Shown here in pieces: positions 4,081 to 55,743 of a stretch of 64,000 nucleotides of DNA. Within the stretch, counting starts at the first letter, position 1; every line of letters begins with the position of its first letter. Both the position numbers and the translations under genes were made by a program. Under the pieces are notes generated by a model, which saw only the letters and a program-made list of their open reading frames with translations, did not search any database and was not told the DNA's origin. Source of the DNA: an uncultured Alphaproteobacteria bacterium (lineage in GTDB: Bacteria > Pseudomonadota > Alphaproteobacteria > Pelagibacterales > Pelagibacteraceae); NCBI GenBank assembly GCA_903869725.1, contig CAIQAD010000038.1, positions 11,101 through 75,100 of the forward strand. The letters run 5' to 3'.

Positions 4081-4511
4081 GCGTTTTCTTTTTCAACCCA
4101 GGGGATTGTCTGAACTTCTATTCCCTCTTCCTTTAACTCGTTAGTTTGTTCTAGACTTGCAGTTCCATAAATATTTCGTTTTTTTTTTTTGTCATAATGA
4201 ATTGCTCTAACTTCAGATACAAATTTATCTCCAACATATTCTACGTTTTTTTCAACATACTCTCTTAATTCTTTTAGCTTTGTTTTAACATTTTTAAGAA
4301 ACTCTTTTTTGTGATCTAAATTATGACTAACTGTATTTTTAGAAGATGTACCAATGCTAGGAGCCATTATACTTTTTTTAACTGTTTTGGTGCCACCACA
4401 AGCATAACAAGAAATCAAATTTTTTTTATGTAACTTGTCGTATTCAGAAGAACTCTGAAACCAGCTTTCAAATTGCTCACCACAAGAGCATTCTAGATTA
4501 TATTTAATCAT
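4077..4511 (-). CDS. DUF1178-family zinc-ribbon protein
   Basis: 144 aa. The N-terminus MIKYNLECSCGEQFESWFQSS...CYACGG matches the CxC...CxxC pattern of alphaproteobacterial DUF1178 proteins. Its stop overlaps the ubiG stop by 4 nt. Confidence 0.7.
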   Translation of the reverse strand: MIKYNLECSCGEQFESWFQSSSEYDKLHKKNLISCYACGGTKTVKKSIMAPSIGTSSKNTVSHNLDHKKEFLKNVKTKLKELREYVEKNVEYVGDKFVSEVRAIHYDKKKKRNIYGTASLEQTNELKEEGIEVQTIPWVEKENA

Positions 4512-16144: not shown

Positions 16145-16280
16145 CATAAATAGAGAAAGCTATTTTAATTAATAGCTATTTTAGTCATATAATAATTATA
16201 AAATGTATTTATTATTAAGACACAAATTAAACACAAAAAAAATTAACAATAATTATTACCAACAAAAAATAAAATAAAAT

Positions 16281-16685
16281 ATGAAACAACTAACTAAATT
16301 AGTAATGGTTATAACTTTGTTTTTAGGAACAATTTCGTATGCTAACGCGAATGATGGTACCGATTGGATAAACAAAAGTTTTACAAGAGATGAATTTATT
16401 AAACATGCACAAGAACGTGCTGGGAAAATGTTTGATAGAATCGATAAAGATCATAAAGGAGTTGTGACTGCTGAACAGATGAAAACTTTTTGGCAAAATA
16501 AAATGGAAAAGAAATGGGGAAAATTTCCAGTTTCGAAAGCTGACTATCTAAAAAAACAAGAAGCGAAGTTTAATGCGATTGACGTTAATCATGATGGTAT
16601 TATTACTTCAGCAGAAGTTAAAGACTATTGGAAAGCTCAAAGAGCTAAGTGGCACAAAGAAAATAGTCCTATGAAAAATAATTAA
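16281..16685 (+). CDS. secreted EF-hand calcium-binding protein
   Basis: 134 aa. Signal peptide ending SYANA and two EF-hand loops, DKDHKGVVTAEQ and DVNHDGIITSAE. Confidence 0.75.
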   Translation: MKQLTKLVMVITLFLGTISYANANDGTDWINKSFTRDEFIKHAQERAGKMFDRIDKDHKGVVTAEQMKTFWQNKMEKKWGKFPVSKADYLKKQEAKFNAIDVNHDGIITSAEVKDYWKAQRAKWHKENSPMKNN

Positions 16686-50149: not shown

Positions 50150-51079
50150 ATGAACGATACGGAAACTAGCCCCTTTCAAGCAACTGACTTATCTGAATTA
50201 AAGCAAATTCAAAAGCCTAATTGGATTTTTGCTTATTCTTATTGGGATATCGTGCCTGTTGCATGTGGTATTTTGCATTTATTGTTTCTAGTAAGCTTAA
50301 TTGTATTTTTTAATAAAATTTCATTACTATTATTTATTGTTTTAGCTTCTATTTACGCCATAAGTATTTCATGGAATATCAATGGAATCTCTCACAACTT
50401 TATTCATAATCCTTATTTTAAATCAAATTTTTTAAATAGAATTTTTAGTTTAATTTTATCTTTAACGATGGTGTTCTCTCAAACATTTTACGAAATAACA
50501 CACAATAGACATCACACAGGTAATAGCGATCGACCTGATCAGCATGGTCATACTTATGATTGGATTTCAATTTATAAACATGGAAAAGAAGGAAGGCCGG
50601 AGGGAGTTTGGTCTTATTGTCTAAAAGGATATTTCAGAGATAATATTCCTGAAATTTATAGAGAACTTAAAAAGAAAAATATTAAGTCTGCAAAATTTGG
50701 AGTATTTGAAATAGTAGCCTCTATTATATTTACAATTATTGGTCTGTTTATCAACTGGAAGGCAACACTTTGTTTGGTGCCTTTTTATTATATTGGACAT
50801 TCTTTATCTTATCTGAATGGTTACTATGAACATTTCAATGGCAACCCTGATAAACCCATTGCTTGGGGAGTGAGCACTTATAATAAGATATATAATTGGA
50901 TTTGGTTTAATAACGGTTATCATGCTGAACATCATTATCGTCCAAAGATACATTGGACAAAAATGAAAGAGCTACACAAGAAAATTGAACAAGAACAAAT
51001 TAAAGAAGGTGTTCACGTTATTGATCATTCTCACCCGCTAGGTTTTCTAGACGAAAAAAATAAGACTTTAAAAGCTTAA
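50150..51079 (+). CDS. membrane fatty-acid desaturase family protein
   Basis: 309 aa. Three His boxes, HNFIH, HNRHH and HAEHH, with interspersed TM segments. Confidence 0.8.
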   Translation: MNDTETSPFQATDLSELKQIQKPNWIFAYSYWDIVPVACGILHLLFLVSLIVFFNKISLLLFIVLASIYAISISWNINGISHNFIHNPYFKSNFLNRIFSLILSLTMVFSQTFYEITHNRHHTGNSDRPDQHGHTYDWISIYKHGKEGRPEGVWSYCLKGYFRDNIPEIYRELKKKNIKSAKFGVFEIVASIIFTIIGLFINWKATLCLVPFYYIGHSLSYLNGYYEHFNGNPDKPIAWGVSTYNKIYNWIWFNNGYHAEHHYRPKIHWTKMKELHKKIEQEQIKEGVHVIDHSHPLGFLDEKNKTLKA

Positions 51080-51778
51080 TTACTTCACAACTTTAGAATC
51101 TTGGCCAAAAAGAATCTTTTTAGATTCTTCAGTAACTGAAGGTGCAACATTAACTGTTTTTGCAACATCATAAGCTTTTATGGTTGCAGGTCTTTGTCTA
51201 ATTCTTTCAAACCATTTATGAAGATAGGGAAATTCTTCAATTTTTTGTTCTTGTCTTTTATGTGGTACAATCCAAGGGTAACTTGCCATATCCGCAATTG
51301 AATATTCACCTACAATATAATCTCTACCATCTGATAATTGTTTATTTAAAACACCATACAGACGTGAAGTTTCTTTAATATATCTTGTCATAGCATATGG
51401 AATTTTTTCAGGCGCATACTGCACAAAGTGATGATTTTGGCCAGCCATAGGTCCAAGTCCACCCATTTGCCAAAATAACCACTGCAAAGTTTCGTTTCTT
51501 CCTCTTAAATCTTGGGGAATAAATTTTTTAATTTTATCAGCTAAATAAAGAAGAATAGCTCCAGACTCAAATATTGAAATAGGCTTATTACCCTCTAAAG
51601 GTTTATGATCAACGATGGCTGGAATTCTGTTGTTTGGAGAAATCTTTAAAAATTCATGCTTAAATTGGTCTCCTGTACTAATGTTAACTGGTATCAATTT
51701 GAAAGGAAGAGCTGCCTCTTCTAAAAAAATCGTAATTTTATGACCATTTGGTGTCGTCCAATAATAAAGATCAATCAT
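51080..51778 (-). CDS. yfcG: Nu-class glutathione S-transferase (YfcG-like disulfide reductase)
   Basis: 232 aa. It is near-collinear with E. coli YfcG as I recall it (MIDLYYWTTPNGHKITIFLEEA, ISPNNRIPAIVDH, FESGAILLYLA, LQWLFWQMGGLGPMAGQNHHF). Confidence 0.9.
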   Translation of the reverse strand: MIDLYYWTTPNGHKITIFLEEAALPFKLIPVNISTGDQFKHEFLKISPNNRIPAIVDHKPLEGNKPISIFESGAILLYLADKIKKFIPQDLRGRNETLQWLFWQMGGLGPMAGQNHHFVQYAPEKIPYAMTRYIKETSRLYGVLNKQLSDGRDYIVGEYSIADMASYPWIVPHKRQEQKIEEFPYLHKWFERIRQRPATIKAYDVAKTVNVAPSVTEESKKILFGQDSKVVK

Positions 51779-51779
51779 A

Positions 51780-53072
51780 TTACTCTTTTGGATGAAGATG
51801 TTTCATATTCATAACGTCTTTGTAAAGTATAACGCCTAACATTTTACCTGACTGTTCTACAACCGGTAAAGCTCTATAGTAATAACGCGCGAACATTTCA
51901 GTTGCATCTTTGAGTGAACTTTCATTATTTAAACTTACAACTTTTGTATTCATAATATCTTTAAGTAACGACTCATCTTCAGCAATTAATAATTCTTTTA
52001 AGTTAACAACTCCAACCAACGCGTCATTGGAGTCTAGAATATATAAATAATTAATAGCGTCTTTACCTTTTGCCATTCTTTGAAAACTTCGTCTCGTTTG
52101 CTGAGCTGTCTTATCTTGATTAAATTTTATATAAGTTGGAATAGCAAAATCTGAAATGTTGACTTGTTGTGCTTTCAAAATAGATTTTATTTTATTTGCA
52201 TGTTCTTGTTCTAGAAGTTTTAAAATTTCTTCAACTTGAACTAGTGGCAAGATAGATAACACATCCGCTCCTTGCGCTGGTGTCATTTCATTAATCAAAA
52301 CTGCTGTTTTTTCTTTTTGTAAAGAGGCAATCACATTTCTTTGAACGTGAGGATCAATTTCTTCTAACGTATCTGATGCTTGCTCAGTATCTAGTTGATT
52401 AAAAACTACCATTCGTTGATCTTGCGGCATTTCTTCTAAAATATCTGCAAGATCTACTGGTGGCATCTCTGCAATTTGTTCTTTGATAACTTTTAATTTT
52501 AAGTCCCCTTTAAAAGATCCGATTTGTTCAGGCATCGGCTCTACGTAACTCCAGGGAACTGTTTGGTTTTGAATTTTATCTGCAAGCTTATAAATAAAAT
52601 TTGCAATACCCTTTAATCCTATTCTTCTAAGAAATCCATAACGAGACAAATCAACGTCTACAACATAAAGTTTATTATCACGCATCACTAATTTTACATC
52701 ATAAACCACTTCTACTTCTCGTCCGTTCACATCTAAAACTTTTTTATCTAAGATAAAATCTTTAAGAAAAATAAATTTATCATCATGTAAATTCTCGAAT
52801 GCTTTTAAATTATCAACATTACATGTAATTTCTTTTTCCGTTAGATTAGAAAAATATTCCCAAGGTATAATTAACATCGGATCGCCAAAAGGCCGTGCAA
52901 CACATACATGGGTAACTTCTGCAAATTTATCTTTATCTATAATGACAAAGTCATCAATTTTTCCTATTTTCTTTTCCTGAAACATTACTTTAGTGCCAGT
53001 AATTTCTGTTAAGAAAAATATTTTCTCATTAATTTGCGTTTTTATAATTGGGGTTCCAGTTTGTAGTTCCAT
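51780..53072 (-). CDS. soluble PRC-barrel + MgtE_N + CBS-pair protein (MgtE cytoplasmic module without a membrane domain)
   Basis: 430 aa with no hydrophobic segment. PRC-like ITGTKVMFQEKKIGKIDDFVIID, MgtE_N-like MPPVDLADILEEMPQDQRMVVFNQLDTEQASDTLEEIDP...EMTPAQGADVLSILP, then two CBS repeats. Confidence 0.85.
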   Translation of the reverse strand: MELQTGTPIIKTQINEKIFFLTEITGTKVMFQEKKIGKIDDFVIIDKDKFAEVTHVCVARPFGDPMLIIPWEYFSNLTEKEITCNVDNLKAFENLHDDKFIFLKDFILDKKVLDVNGREVEVVYDVKLVMRDNKLYVVDVDLSRYGFLRRIGLKGIANFIYKLADKIQNQTVPWSYVEPMPEQIGSFKGDLKLKVIKEQIAEMPPVDLADILEEMPQDQRMVVFNQLDTEQASDTLEEIDPHVQRNVIASLQKEKTAVLINEMTPAQGADVLSILPLVQVEEILKLLEQEHANKIKSILKAQQVNISDFAIPTYIKFNQDKTAQQTRRSFQRMAKGKDAINYLYILDSNDALVGVVNLKELLIAEDESLLKDIMNTKVVSLNNESSLKDATEMFARYYYRALPVVEQSGKMLGVILYKDVMNMKHLHPKE

Positions 53073-53077
53073 AAATT

Positions 53078-53266
53078 TTATAAAATTGAGACAAATTTGA
53101 TTATAACTAGCGACACAATAACAATAAGGTAAATTCTAAGTAGCACGAGAATAAATTTCATAGGTTTGCTTAAGACAAAATTTGGTTTTTCATATTTTTT
53201 ATTTATACTTTTAACAGTTTCGACTAAATTTTTAAAAATTTCAGATATAATTTCAAAAAATCTCAT
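53078..53266 (-). CDS. candidate 62-aa tail-anchored membrane protein
   Basis: The short form of track ORF 53078-53347 starts at MRFFEIISEIF..., 4 nt after the NRAMP-like stop. It has a C-terminal TM (FILVLLRIYLIVIVSLVIIKFVSIL) and lies 5 nt upstream of the MgtE_N/CBS gene. Confidence 0.45.
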   Translation of the reverse strand: MRFFEIISEIFKNLVETVKSINKKYEKPNFVLSKPMKFILVLLRIYLIVIVSLVIIKFVSIL

Positions 53267-53270
53267 AAAT

Positions 53271-54548
53271 TTAGAATATTTTAATAATATTGGGGAATAA
53301 AGTGGATATTCCGTAAAGCGTTGATACAAAAATAATGAATAATACAATTCCTATATTTATAATATTTTCTCCTGAAGTGTTCTTATATTTGCCCATAGTT
53401 GGCTCATGATTTAACAAAATAATTAAGAATACTAAAGCCGCAGGCAATAAAGTAACTGATACTACTTGTACAAATAAAGTAATTAAAATGAGTGGTGCGC
53501 CTGGAATTAATACAACGGCACCTGAGCTAATAAGAATTATAAAATAAAAGAAATAAAACCATGGCGCTTCTTTTACTTTGTAATTTAATGAATGTGCCCA
53601 GCCAAAGACTTCACCAAAAGCCCAAGTGCTTGCAAGCGATATACAAACAGCACCTAATAATCCCGCATCAAAAAGTCCAATTGCAAGAAATGTTCCTAAA
53701 TATTTATTGATATCCATTAATTTAATCGAAGCTTGTGCGGCACTTTCAATATCAACTCCGTACAACAAAGTGCCTGTGACGATGATACAAAAAAATGCAA
53801 TCGCAACAGTAAAAATTGCACCAATCGCTGTATCTACTTTTCCAAGAAACATATCTTTTTCCTGCATATTTTTATCAACTACAGAACTTTGCTGAAAAAA
53901 AATCATCCAAGGAGCAATAGTTGTTCCAATATTTGCCAAGAATAAAAAGAATAGATCGCTTGTAATTCCTCCAGGTGGAATATGCGGAATAAAAGAATTT
54001 TTTAAAATCTCTGTTGCTGATGGATGAATCATGAAAGCTGCGGGGATATAAATTAAATTTAAAATACAAAAGCCCATTACAATTTTCTCCCAAGTCCAAT
54101 ATCTTCCCTGGATCACCATAAAAGCCATAATAATAATTACAACTATGACTGTTATAAATGGCGGTACATTAAAAATAGAAAGGGCCGCAGTCATCCCAAT
54201 AAACTCTGTGACAAGTGTTAACCAATTTGTAAAAACTAAATCTAATAAAGAAAACCAACCCCAGCCAGGACCAAAGGCTGCAAAAATTGCTTCGGCATGA
54301 CCTCTCTTGGTAACAGCTCCAAGTCTAACAGTCATTTCTTGCACGTAATAAGCAACTGGACCTAAAATAATTAAAAACCAAAGAAAATGATATTTATATT
54401 TAGCACCGGTGACTACGTAAGTGGTAATTCCACCTGCATCATTATCTGCGATCATAACGATAAGACCAGGTCCTGCAACGAGCAAATAAGTTTTAACTGC
54501 TTTCCAAAATCTTCGGTATTTATAAAAAAGATTTGACCAGAAGTTCAT
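53271..54548 (-). CDS. NRAMP (SLC11)-related transporter with non-canonical metal site (NRMT-like)
   Basis: 425 aa with about 11 TM segments. The TM1 motif is GPGLIVMIADNDAGG, so D37-A-G-G40 (54429-54440) replaces DPGN. TM6 is GTTIAPWMIFFQQS, so A212-P-W (53907-53915) replaces M-P-H. Confidence 0.88.
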   Translation of the reverse strand: MNFWSNLFYKYRRFWKAVKTYLLVAGPGLIVMIADNDAGGITTYVVTGAKYKYHFLWFLIILGPVAYYVQEMTVRLGAVTKRGHAEAIFAAFGPGWGWFSLLDLVFTNWLTLVTEFIGMTAALSIFNVPPFITVIVVIIIMAFMVIQGRYWTWEKIVMGFCILNLIYIPAAFMIHPSATEILKNSFIPHIPPGGITSDLFFLFLANIGTTIAPWMIFFQQSSVVDKNMQEKDMFLGKVDTAIGAIFTVAIAFFCIIVTGTLLYGVDIESAAQASIKLMDINKYLGTFLAIGLFDAGLLGAVCISLASTWAFGEVFGWAHSLNYKVKEAPWFYFFYFIILISSGAVVLIPGAPLILITLFVQVVSVTLLPAALVFLIILLNHEPTMGKYKNTSGENIINIGIVLFIIFVSTLYGISTLFPNIIKIF

Positions 54549-54601
54549 TGTATTTACTCTTTATTTTTTACATATTTTTTATGCCCTTATACTCTTTTAT
54601 A

Positions 54602-55132
54602 TTAATTTTGCTCCTTAATTTTTCTAGATACCAGAGCACGATTATTAAAATTTTCTAAGTATTTTTTTGCAATAATTGGATCGTTATTAATGAATAAAAC
54701 ATTTTCAGCATTTCTATCCTGCGCTGACTTTGTGAAGTTAAAACTCCCAGTAATTACATCTTTTTCATCAACTACCATCACTTTGTTATGGGCAATTGCT
54801 GGCTTGTCATCTATTAAAACATCAATTTTATTTTTTATAAGAGTCTGTGCGCCAAAATTTCTTCTGTCTTCATTTTCTTTATCTAAGATTACTTTGACTA
54901 TAAGTCCCCTCTCGTGAGCCTTTACAATCGCCTGAATTATGGGTTGACTTGTAAAACTATAAGCTTGAACATAAAGAGAAGTTTTTGCTTCATTAATACG
55001 TTTAACGATTTGATCAGTGCAATTGCCCCCTGGTGTGAAGCAAGTACTAATCTCTTGTGCGGATACACAATTAAATAAAAAAAAGCTTAAAATGATAATT
55101 TTTTTCAACATTTGCTGACTCGTTTTTTTCAC
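54602..55132 (-). CDS. secreted single-HKD phospholipase D family protein (Nuc-type endonuclease-like)
   Basis: 176 aa. A signal peptide and one HKD motif, AHNKVMVVDEKDVITGSFNFTKSA. Size and architecture resemble the Nuc nuclease. Confidence 0.85.
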   Translation of the reverse strand: MKKTSQQMLKKIIILSFFLFNCVSAQEISTCFTPGGNCTDQIVKRINEAKTSLYVQAYSFTSQPIIQAIVKAHERGLIVKVILDKENEDRRNFGAQTLIKNKIDVLIDDKPAIAHNKVMVVDEKDVITGSFNFTKSAQDRNAENVLFINNDPIIAKKYLENFNNRALVSRKIKEQN

Positions 55133-55158
55133 AATATAGCATATATTCGCTTTTCTTT

Positions 55159-55743
55159 ATGTTTAAAAAAATCTTATTCATATCGCTTATAGCGATAGTT
55201 GTTTCAAATTCCATTTCGACTAATCGAGCTTTAAGCGATTCAAATATCAAATCACTTAATGCTATGCTCATTCAACAAGATTTTTCACTTGTTGATAAGA
55301 ATGAAAAAAAAATTCATAAATTTAATTTAATGGGAAAGCCAACCATTCTTTTTTTTGGCTTTACTCACTGTCCTGATGTCTGCCCAACTACTTTAAATAC
55401 CTTGTCTACTTTACTTGAAAAATTAGGAGATGATAAAAATAAATTTAATATTTATTTTATAAGCGTTGACCCTGAACGCGATAATACTAAAATTTTAAGG
55501 GACTACTTAAGTAGCTTTGATTCAAAAATTAATGGATTAACAGGAGATCCAAAACAAATTCAAATTTTAACTTCACAATTTGGAATTTATGTAGAAAAAG
55601 TTCTCCAAAATAATGGTGATTACACTATGGACCATAGTGCTATGATGTTGTTACTTGATAAAAATACTAAACTTGTAAGCACATTAACTTATCAAGAATC
55701 TCAAAGCGTTGCTCTTGATAAACTCAAAAACCTTTTGCGTTAG
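55159..55743 (+). CDS. SCO1/SenC copper chaperone / thiol-disulfide oxidoreductase
   Basis: 194 aa. An N-terminal anchor, FGFTHCPDVCP (CxxxCP) and a downstream DHS motif. Confidence 0.9.
   Translation: MFKKILFISLIAIVVSNSISTNRALSDSNIKSLNAMLIQQDFSLVDKNEKKIHKFNLMGKPTILFFGFTHCPDVCPTTLNTLSTLLEKLGDDKNKFNIYFISVDPERDNTKILRDYLSSFDSKINGLTGDPKQIQILTSQFGIYVEKVLQNNGDYTMDHSAMMLLLDKNTKLVSTLTYQESQSVALDKLKNLLR

Follow-up and report, generated by a model that had tools for sequence, protein, structure and literature searches.

A widespread three-gene cassette encodes an NRMT-clade transporter, a pore-less MgtE-like protein and a small membrane protein

We analysed a stretch of 64,000 nucleotides (nt) of an uncultured alphaproteobacterium of the Pelagibacteraceae (GenBank assembly GCA_903869725.1, contig CAIQAD010000038.1, positions 11,101 to 75,100). 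This whole stretch is called the window, and coordinates follow its numbering unless a locus handle precedes them. The window holds one copy of a self-contained cassette of three genes that has been spread widely by horizontal transfer. The genes encode a transporter of the NRMT clade of the SLC11/NRAMP family, a small membrane protein and a soluble protein homologous to the cytosolic sensor part of the Mg2+ channel MgtE (hereafter the sensor). The reading that we prefer, with a probability of about 0.55, is that a membrane-tethered, MgtE-derived sensor of Mg2+ and nucleotides feedback-gates an uncoupled carrier of Mg2+ (and Mn2+), with the small protein acting as the tether.

The cassette and its conservation

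The three open reading frames (ORFs) follow one another head to tail on the minus strand, in the order transporter, small protein, sensor:

53271-54548, minus strand: transporter gene, NRMT-clade SLC11/NRAMP, 425 amino acids (aa) (Pfam Nramp and PDB matches)
53078-53266, minus strand: small membrane protein gene, 62 aa counted from an ATG (profile family, AlphaFold2 model)
51780-53072, minus strand: sensor gene, 430 aa (Pfam, NCBIfam, PDB and Foldseek matches)

The junctions read TAA-attt-ATG (a gap of 4 nt) between the transporter and small genes and TAA-aattt-ATG (5 nt) between the small and sensor genes. An earlier note on this DNA, made from the sequence alone, had listed minus-strand genes with these gaps, a 62-aa ORF with one C-terminal transmembrane (TM) helix and a sensor composed of PRC, MgtE_N and two CBS domains without a pore. 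ORF coordinates and junction sequences bear out the first, the hydrophobic helix of the AlphaFold2 model and the conservation of the family agree with the second, and Pfam, PDB and AlphaFold2/Foldseek matches support the third. In a scan of positions 50900-55400 no terminator-like site was found between the three genes and promoter-like sites were fewer than in shuffled sequences; the scan was otherwise uninformative and is consistent with a single transcript for the three genes.

A scan of one genome per species yielded at least 493 relatives of the transporter, the best 80 of which were analysed as loci. These 80 are 65-75% identical to the window transporter (65-77% within the subclade, across many phyla) and represent more than 20 phylum-level lineages of Bacteria (Omnitrophota, Acidobacteriota, Chlorobi, Spirochaetota, Nitrospirae, Chloroflexota, several classes of Proteobacteria, Actinomycetes and a bacterium of the candidate phyla radiation) and Archaea (Methanomicrobiales, Methanosarcinales, Thermoplasmata and DPANN); most are metagenome-assembled genomes (MAGs) from peat, soil and lakes. 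In 79 of the 80, the three genes follow one another on one strand as NRMT, small gene and sensor; the remaining contig ends at the NRMT gene. The adjacency to an MgtE_N/CBS gene, which the earlier note had proposed to survey, is thus conserved across genomes. In the same 79 loci, which differ strongly in G+C content, a profile of the small gene matched between the NRMT and sensor genes (E-values from 1e-16 to 1e-27). The genes are closely packed (median distances of 30 and 25 nt between a stop codon and the residue at which the alignment of the following gene begins), and clustering of the flanking ORFs of the 79 cassette-bearing loci revealed no fourth conserved gene, only synteny at the level of single lineages. 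Pairwise distances of the three proteins were correlated (Mantel r of 0.73, 0.60 and 0.55, p 0.001). Since all three proteins fall in large conserved families, their joint occurrence in the window is not a chance observation.

An M-box Mg2+ riboswitch was found directly upstream of eight of the 80 cassettes (101-147 bits). It was the sole riboswitch reported in 32 genome and context loci that were searched with all Rfam families at the gathering score.

The transporter

The transporter matches the Pfam Nramp family over its full length (E-value 7.9e-70). Its top match in the PDB is EleNRMT, the Mg2+ transporter of Eggerthella lenta (7qia, E-value 5e-64), followed at a distance by DraNramp (3e-13), ScaDMT (2e-7) and the plant Al3+ transporter NRAT (4e-6). 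It is 37% identical to EleNRMT, 77% to a homologue in Omnitrophota and 69% to an archaeal homologue, and by homology to EleNRMT it is predicted to have 11 TM helices. Two motifs of the metal site stand out:

54429-54440, minus strand: TM1 metal-site motif D37-A-G-G40 (alignments to EleNRMT and DraNramp)
53907-53924, minus strand: TM6 motif T209-T-I-A-P-W214 (GTTIAPWM block in common with EleNRMT)

D37 and G40 correspond to Asp55 and Gly58 of EleNRMT, G40 replacing the canonical Asn (DPGN in DraNramp, DAGG here). In TM6, A-T-V-M-P-H of DraNramp has become T-T-I-A-P-W, with Ala in place of the canonical Met and Trp in place of a proton-path His; the Thr corresponds to Thr224 of EleNRMT. Of the positions of the proton-path histidines in helix 6b, the first is occupied by W214, and a further one carries Gln where EleNRMT has Asn (FFQQS versus FFNQS). 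The blocks N-D-A-G-G-I and G-T-T-I-A-P-W-M, the Glu in TM3 and the Gln in TM10 are all common to the window transporter and EleNRMT, and D37, G40, E115, T209, T210, A212, W214 and Q361 were invariant in our comparison. The window transporter thus agrees with the NRMT/NrmT clade (e.g. NrmT of Clostridium acetobutylicum and EleNRMT) in fold and closeness, in TM1, in TM6 and in the replacement of the proton-path histidines, and judged by these sequence features it belongs to that clade of SLC11. The earlier note had given the two motifs at exactly these positions (DAGG at 54429-54440, A-P-W at 53907-53915) and had called the protein NRMT-like instead of a canonical NRAMP, an assignment with which the alignment to NRAMP, NRMT and NRAT proteins is in line, EleNRMT being by far the closest (5e-64 versus 3e-13 or weaker).

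In EleNRMT, Asp55, Gly58, Thr224 and Gln379 form a wide site for hydrated Mg2+, and the T224A substitution abolished transport of Mg2+, not that of Mn2+ (PMC8806188). Trp and Asn stand in the places of the proton-path histidines, and the protein, which is stable and active alone in proteoliposomes, transports Mg2+ and Mn2+ without coupling to protons (PMC8806188). By homology, the window transporter would likewise be an uncoupled importer of Mg2+ (and Mn2+).

The sensor protein

Pfam recognised in the sensor a PRC domain (PF05239, residues 17-87, 28.2 bits against a cut-off of 21.2), an MgtE_N domain (PF03448, residues 203-300, E-value 2.4e-23) and a CBS domain (5.6e-16). A single CBS stretch passes the Pfam threshold; the AlphaFold2 model and Foldseek matches to CBS pairs show a tandem pair at residues ~303-425. 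Along the protein, linker helices come between the PRC barrel and the MgtE_N domain, and the domains are placed as follows:

52812-53024, minus strand: PRC-barrel domain, residues 17-87 (PF05239; beta strands at 17-84 in the model; Foldseek match to CdpB1/CdpB2, 8qzo, ~4e-7)
52173-52466, minus strand: MgtE_N domain, residues 203-300 (PF03448; acidic, with 18 D/E versus 8 K/R; contains D234 and D270)
51798-52166, minus strand: CBS pair, residues ~303-425 (Pfam CBS; contains Y342, K359, E360, Y399 and D419)

Residues ~194-424 align to the cytosolic domains of MgtE in the PDB with E-values from 8e-26 to 2e-19 (e.g. 8gps, 8e-26, and 2yvy, 5e-24). The AlphaFold2 model, built with 51 homologues, had a mean predicted local distance difference test (pLDDT) score of 82.5, and its best Foldseek matches were again MgtE cytosolic domains (E-values from 7e-20 to 1e-15), in addition to CBS pairs and PRC-barrel proteins. 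The MgtE membrane domain PF01769 was not found by Pfam, the NCBIfam model TIGR00400 (mgtE) is covered only at positions 17-250 of 450, and the maximum Kyte-Doolittle score over 19 residues is 1.36, which indicates that there is no TM helix. For these three reasons the sensor is not an MgtE channel.

We mapped the ligand residues of MgtE of Thermus thermophilus (TtMgtE; PMC5882242; PMC5529423) onto 51 members of the sensor family. Three equivalents of Mg2+-site residues are kept, namely E59 of site Mg7 (D234, Asp in 47 of 51), D95 of site Mg6 (D270, 51 of 51) and D247 of site Mg4 (D419, 51 of 51). Equivalents of the ATP ligands are kept as well: Y170 (Y342) in all 51, R187 (K359) as Lys or Arg in 46, D188 (E360) as Glu or Asp in 49 and F227 (Y399) as an aromatic residue in 45. 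The sensor is therefore best described as a homologue of the MgtE sensor for which, judged by these residues, binding of Mg2+ and adenine nucleotides is plausible. A further observation was made in Omnitrophota, where the amphipathic linker helix of sensors of 448-449 aa (P0040, P0025 and P0031; L089 3001-4350) is duplicated (…GLKGFANF.HSLA… then …GFANFLYGLANKV…).

The small membrane protein

Read mechanically, the small ORF starts at a TTG at position 53347, which would give a protein of 89 aa overlapping the NRMT gene. Its homologues are 56-75 aa long and align from the ATG, so that 62 aa is the supported length. The AlphaFold2 model (pLDDT 89.7) has two helices, at 2-24 and 34-61, joined by a loop at 25-33; the second helix is hydrophobic. 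The protein can be divided into three parts:

Residues 2-24: amphipathic helix
Residues 21-28: conserved loop I21-N-x2-Y-x2-P28
Residues 34-61: TM helix with invariant R44, Y46, K57 and F58

In an alignment of 40 diverse members, eleven residues were invariant (I21, N22, Y25, P28, L40, L43, R44, Y46, L47, K57 and F58). Neither Pfam nor NCBIfam gave a family match for the 62-aa protein. A profile search recovered at least 508 clusters, and the 120 matches listed are all 56-75 aa long and have no Pfam domain; where one of the 120 bears a name, it is "hypothetical" or "uncharacterised". A search of 1.84 billion representative proteins found 265 clusters, and homologues of 58-71 aa occupy the same gene position in Omnitrophota, Deltaproteobacteria and an archaeal MAG. 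The family appears to be undescribed.

We also found metagenome proteins in which the NRMT and the small protein are fused. In P0536, residues 1-182 are 61% identical to residues 238-419 of the window NRMT (E-value 8e-73), followed by a hydrophobic linker of ~90 residues and a small-protein domain at 276-321, and P0538 has the same architecture (hhalign probability 98.4%). Such fusions are evidence of the Rosetta-stone type for a function of the small protein at the carrier. Its N-terminus would be inside and its C-terminus outside, and the extra linker helix of the fusion fits this topology. In a third metagenome protein, P0537 (120 aa), NRMT helices ~9-10 pass directly into the small-protein domain at the cytoplasmic loop that precedes TM11, and the helix of the small protein looks like a substitute for TM11; this may be a deletion or an assembly artefact. 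A 61-aa ORF that follows the sensor gene in L001 and L002 was considered as a relative of the small protein and rejected, as it is unrelated and not conserved.

Its shortness and the lack of a Pfam or NCBIfam match might suggest that the 62-aa ORF arose by chance in A/T-rich DNA between two genes; this is effectively refuted by the strong profile matches at the same position in 79 loci of very different G+C content, the 265 representative clusters, the eleven invariant residues and the fusions to NRMT.

Sensor-first operons and membrane anchors

The genes that adjoin EleNRMT-like genes in Eggerthellaceae are arranged differently, with the sensor before the NRMT, and there the sensor (451-454 aa) ends in a TM helix. 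HMMER at maximum sensitivity found no homologue of the small protein in the EleNRMT-type loci L087 and L088, nor did any of 80 further metagenome loci of the sensor-then-NRMT type contain one. These 80 loci were grouped by the form of the sensor:

Group A, 22 of 80 loci: sensor with one C-terminal TM helix, the form seen in Eggerthellaceae
Group B, 38 of 80 loci: sensor with a tail of ~200 aa that is a whole MgtE membrane domain
Group C, 9 of 80 loci: sensor with a polybasic tail (e.g. ILPPAAKRKRRKV)
Other, 2 of 80 loci (L150 and L153): soluble sensor adjoining a P-type ATPase, or on a contig whose length does not allow a decision
Unusable, 9 of 80 loci: truncated or mis-assembled

The loci of group B (L113-L149 and similar, e.g. 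L113 2881-4809 and L122 2983-4836) are from gut metagenomes and encode a full-length MgtE homologue with an N-terminal PRC barrel; that of L113 aligns to TtMgtE 45-469 with an E-value of 2.4e-58. In all 34 distinct sequences of this group the G-N of the P-x6-G-N motif is gone and Ala, Ser or Met stands in the place of the pore residue Asp432, by which these proteins look like pseudo-channels. Taken together, the NRMT partner looks like a paralogue of MgtE that was taken on by NRMT and whose pore was lost step by step, membrane attachment of some form being kept throughout; in the clade of the window, the role of membrane attachment looks to have passed to the separate small protein. The earlier note had guessed that the small protein bridges carrier and sensor, and this gained comparative support from its fixed position, the fusions to NRMT and the absence of the gene where the sensor has a membrane feature of its own; the bridging itself is deduced from these patterns.

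Some further loci deserve mention. The soluble sensors with a polybasic tail (ILPPAAKRKRRKV) are found in sensor-then-NRMT operons from soil and sediment (L164-L172, e.g. L165 ~4200-4242), and the tail could be an electrostatic membrane anchor. In L150 (336-4239) only 13 nt separate the gene for an 883-aa P-type cation ATPase from a downstream gene for a soluble PRC-MgtE_N-CBS protein of 412 aa; no NRMT gene is present, and directly after the latter gene the opposite strand carries one for a second PRC-barrel protein. The MgtE-type module may thus be portable and serve transporters other than NRMT. L092 (1130-3529), a candidate for an NRMT without a sensor, was discarded: its sensor gene, which adjoins an EleNRMT-like gene, contains several internally repeated segments, and the contig is almost certainly mis-assembled.

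Flanking genes and host

The surroundings of the cassette in the window include the following:

54549-54601, minus strand: A/T-rich spacer of 53 nt between an upstream PLD-like gene and the NRMT start (from the sequence)
51080-51778, minus strand: glutathione S-transferase gene, beginning 1 nt past the stop codon of the sensor gene

With the latter, the cassette forms a string of four co-directional genes; the transferase gene is specific to the lineage of the window and is not adjacent to the cassette in the other lineages examined. At the Rfam gathering score no riboswitch was found in the 64-kb window, the spacer upstream of the NRMT gene included, and no match better than chance was obtained for positions 54300-55400 at E-values up to 10.

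Several observations were made around other cassettes. That of L089 lies among genes for CDF, GDT1 and an ArsP-type permease, and genes for P-type cation ATPases adjoin the cassette in several unrelated genomes (L004 6288-8852 and about six of the loci L005-L084, e.g. L047 8792-10150). In L023 an Acido-Lenti-1 RNA match (4356-4400, 39.1 bits, gathering score 37) lies in an exceptionally long spacer that separates the NRMT gene from the small gene; such a spacer (~250 nt) was seen in acidobacterial cassettes with an M-box, L009 among them.

Proteins of the window recur exactly on dozens of contigs from lake metagenomes, up to 69 for one protein. The window has ~30% G+C and carries genes for CobS/CobT, Kup, Amt/P-II, malate synthase and SecA, and the host is probably an abundant freshwater SAR11-like bacterium. 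No tRNA or Rfam match was found in the 64-kb window. The earlier note had proposed a check for corA and full-length mgtE. The contigs that match the window and together span ~63 kb of it have neither gene among their gene calls, an outcome that holds for the window. A 134-aa protein encoded at ~16260-16660 on the plus strand (L090 15505-15909) showed only faint EF-hand matches.

Relation to known systems

The pairing of NRMT and MgtE-like genes has been published, and the observation as such is about twelve years old. As far as the accessible text of Shin et al. [quoted passage not shown] The locus in the window, with its adjacent and co-directional genes for an NRMT and an MgtE cytoplasmic domain, is such an operon. 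The claim of the earlier note that no such split was known to be characterised does not hold, as Shin et al. had both described the pairing and co-expressed one pair. In our literature search theirs was the sole mention of the MgtE-like neighbour, which is absent from the EleNRMT structure paper, later NRAMP papers and reviews of Mg2+ transport, and no paper was found that links a PRC barrel with MgtE or Nramp.

The window cassette differs from the described operons in several respects. The latter are described as pairs of genes, with the MgtE-like gene upstream of NrmT in Acidobacterium capsulatum, whereas the order here is NRMT, small gene, sensor; and the accessible text of Shin et al. mentions no PRC barrel, small membrane protein or membrane anchors, while the clade of the window has both a PRC barrel and a small protein. 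From EleNRMT the window cassette is set apart by the modest identity of the carrier, the NRMT-first order, the extra small gene and the missing M-box. The sensor shares with the MgtE channel (T. thermophilus, 2yvx/2yvy) a homologous N domain and CBS pair and several Mg2+ and ATP residues, and the proposed logic is the same, a cytosolic clamp responding to Mg2+ and ATP that controls entry. It lacks, however, the plug helix and the five-helix pore domain and has a PRC barrel and a linker added, and whereas MgtE controls its own pore, the target of the sensor would be a separate carrier with the LeuT fold. MgtS, MgtR and KdpF are very short single-pass proteins that act on cation transporters, and the 62-aa protein, encoded with a cation transporter that is presumably its target, resembles them; it has no detectable homology to them and differs in its roughly doubled length and in a conserved helix and loop on the cytosolic side.

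The locus is, in short, a typical member of a very common and essentially uncharacterised variant of a known operon type, with an ordinary NRMT as carrier. The three-part architecture, the family of small subunits and the series of pore loss appear to be undescribed.

Proposed mechanism and alternative explanations

In the mechanism that we favour, the 425-aa NRMT would be the carrier, with the SLC11/LeuT fold. Its enlarged, Met-less site (D37, G40, T209/T210, A212 and Q361) would, by homology, accept largely hydrated Mg2+ and also Mn2+, and with the proton pathway disabled it would be an uncoupled importer driven by the membrane potential, like EleNRMT. The 430-aa protein would be a paralogue of MgtE that has no pore, keeps the clamp of N domain and CBS pair responsive to Mg2+ and nucleotides, as its conserved ligand residues suggest, and has acquired a PRC barrel. 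The TM helix of the 62-aa single-pass subunit would pack on the NRMT, and its cytosolic helix and I-N-x2-Y-x2-P loop would keep the sensor in place on the cytoplasmic side of the carrier, a role for which the gene fusions and the complementary distribution of membrane anchors argue. When cytosolic Mg2+ is high, a state probably read in combination with ATP, the sensor would close and block or lock the carrier, and at low Mg2+ it would release it; this direction, like the regulation in trans by Mg2+ as such, is inferred. The outcome would be a post-translational feedback comparable to the self-gating of MgtE and CorA. CorA, like MgtE, restrains uptake through cytosolic Mg2+-sensing domains. An uncoupled carrier as assayed for EleNRMT would, driven by the membrane potential alone, raise Mg2+ far above safe levels; a brake would therefore be needed, and only ~10% of the cassettes have transcriptional control by an M-box.

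A number of points weigh against this mechanism. The equivalents of D91, D226 and D250 of TtMgtE are not kept, so that about half of the Mg2+-site residues are retained, sites Mg2 and Mg3 of the plug helix are absent because the sensor ends at residue 430, just past the CBS pair, and the equivalent of the ATP ligand N203 is not kept. The Asp at D419 may be conserved for binding of adenosine ribose, a common role in CBS domains, instead of Mg2+. Domain packing in the model of the sensor is uncertain (predicted template modelling score 0.46), the fusions P0536 and P0538 are partial gene calls from metagenomes, the TM-region alignment behind the loss of the pore motif is one of low identity, and the window copy of the cassette has no M-box. 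EleNRMT transports alone, which implies that partners are not needed for transport (PMC8806188). As reported by Shin et al., NrmT of A. capsulatum gave full rescue of Mn2+ uptake, whereas rescue of Mg2+ uptake was confined to millimolar Mg2+, and co-expression with its MgtE-like gene in a Mg2+-transport-deficient Bacillus subtilis strain gave no added Mg2+ rescue (PMC4072509).

In one alternative, the transporter is mainly an importer of Mn2+ or another transition metal, with an MgtE-like partner that may still be a regulator and with Mg2+ uptake not its physiological role. We regard this as unlikely, although it is the best of the alternatives. It is in line with the full rescue of the Mn2+-uptake mutant by A. 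capsulatum NrmT and its weak rescue of Mg2+ uptake, with the transport of Mn2+ by EleNRMT and with the position of the L089 cassette among CDF, GDT1 and ArsP-type permease genes. On the other hand, the window transporter keeps the Thr that in EleNRMT is needed for Mg2+ and much less for Mn2+, the M-box in front of eight of 80 cassettes of the same subclade is a Mg2+ riboswitch and the sole riboswitch in the 32 loci searched with all of Rfam, and the partner has its origin in a Mg2+ channel.

PRC barrels are modules through which proteins interact with one another. This, the constant presence of the small subunit in the clade and the better conservation of the ATP-ligand equivalents (Y342, K/R359, E/D360 and F/Y399) compared with several of the Mg2+ sites would suit a positive role of the sensor and the small protein, as factors for assembly, stability or activation or as a switch for ATP or energy status. 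Such a role seems to us less probable still, because EleNRMT is stable and active alone, the co-expressed A. capsulatum pair gave no better rescue and an uncoupled electrogenic Mg2+ carrier would need a brake more than an activator.

The proteins might finally be co-expressed without forming a complex, the soluble protein acting elsewhere, for instance on another transporter or as a general binder of Mg2+ and nucleotides. L150, where the module follows a P-type ATPase, indicates that it is not exclusive to NRMT; nevertheless, the order kept in 79 of 80 loci of Bacteria and Archaea with no other conserved neighbour, the correlated divergence of the proteins, the existence of NRMT-small fusions and the occurrence of sensor anchors exactly where the small gene is missing make this explanation improbable.

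We also consider a broader version of the favoured mechanism, which is more tentative and to which we would give somewhat less than even odds. NRMT carriers in general would then be heteromeric machines, with a regulatory subunit that descends from a full MgtE by staged loss of the pore (a membrane domain without its motif, one TM helix, a polybasic tail, no anchor) and that is docked, in the most widespread form, via a subunit of ~60 residues; the same module would also serve other cation pumps such as P-type ATPases.

Implications for Mg2+ uptake

Among the known routes by which prokaryotes take up Mg2+, NRMTs are the fourth. To our knowledge EleNRMT is the only NRMT that has been characterised structurally, and it was studied alone, though a conserved, membrane-anchored partner gene derived from MgtE adjoins the EleNRMT-like genes of Eggerthellaceae. 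If the three-part model is true, it would be a clear case in which the gating domain of a channel has been taken over for the control of a carrier unrelated to it, the small subunits of transporters would gain a new family, and there would be a possible reason for the null result of the co-expression in 2014, namely that a component or a condition was not supplied. Through the three-part architecture, the family of small subunits and the stages of pore loss, the regulation of NRMTs can be tested directly. The cassette is very common in microbes of peat, lakes and sediments in both prokaryotic domains, and its presence in what is probably an abundant freshwater SAR11-like lineage bears on the acquisition of Mg2+ in dilute waters.

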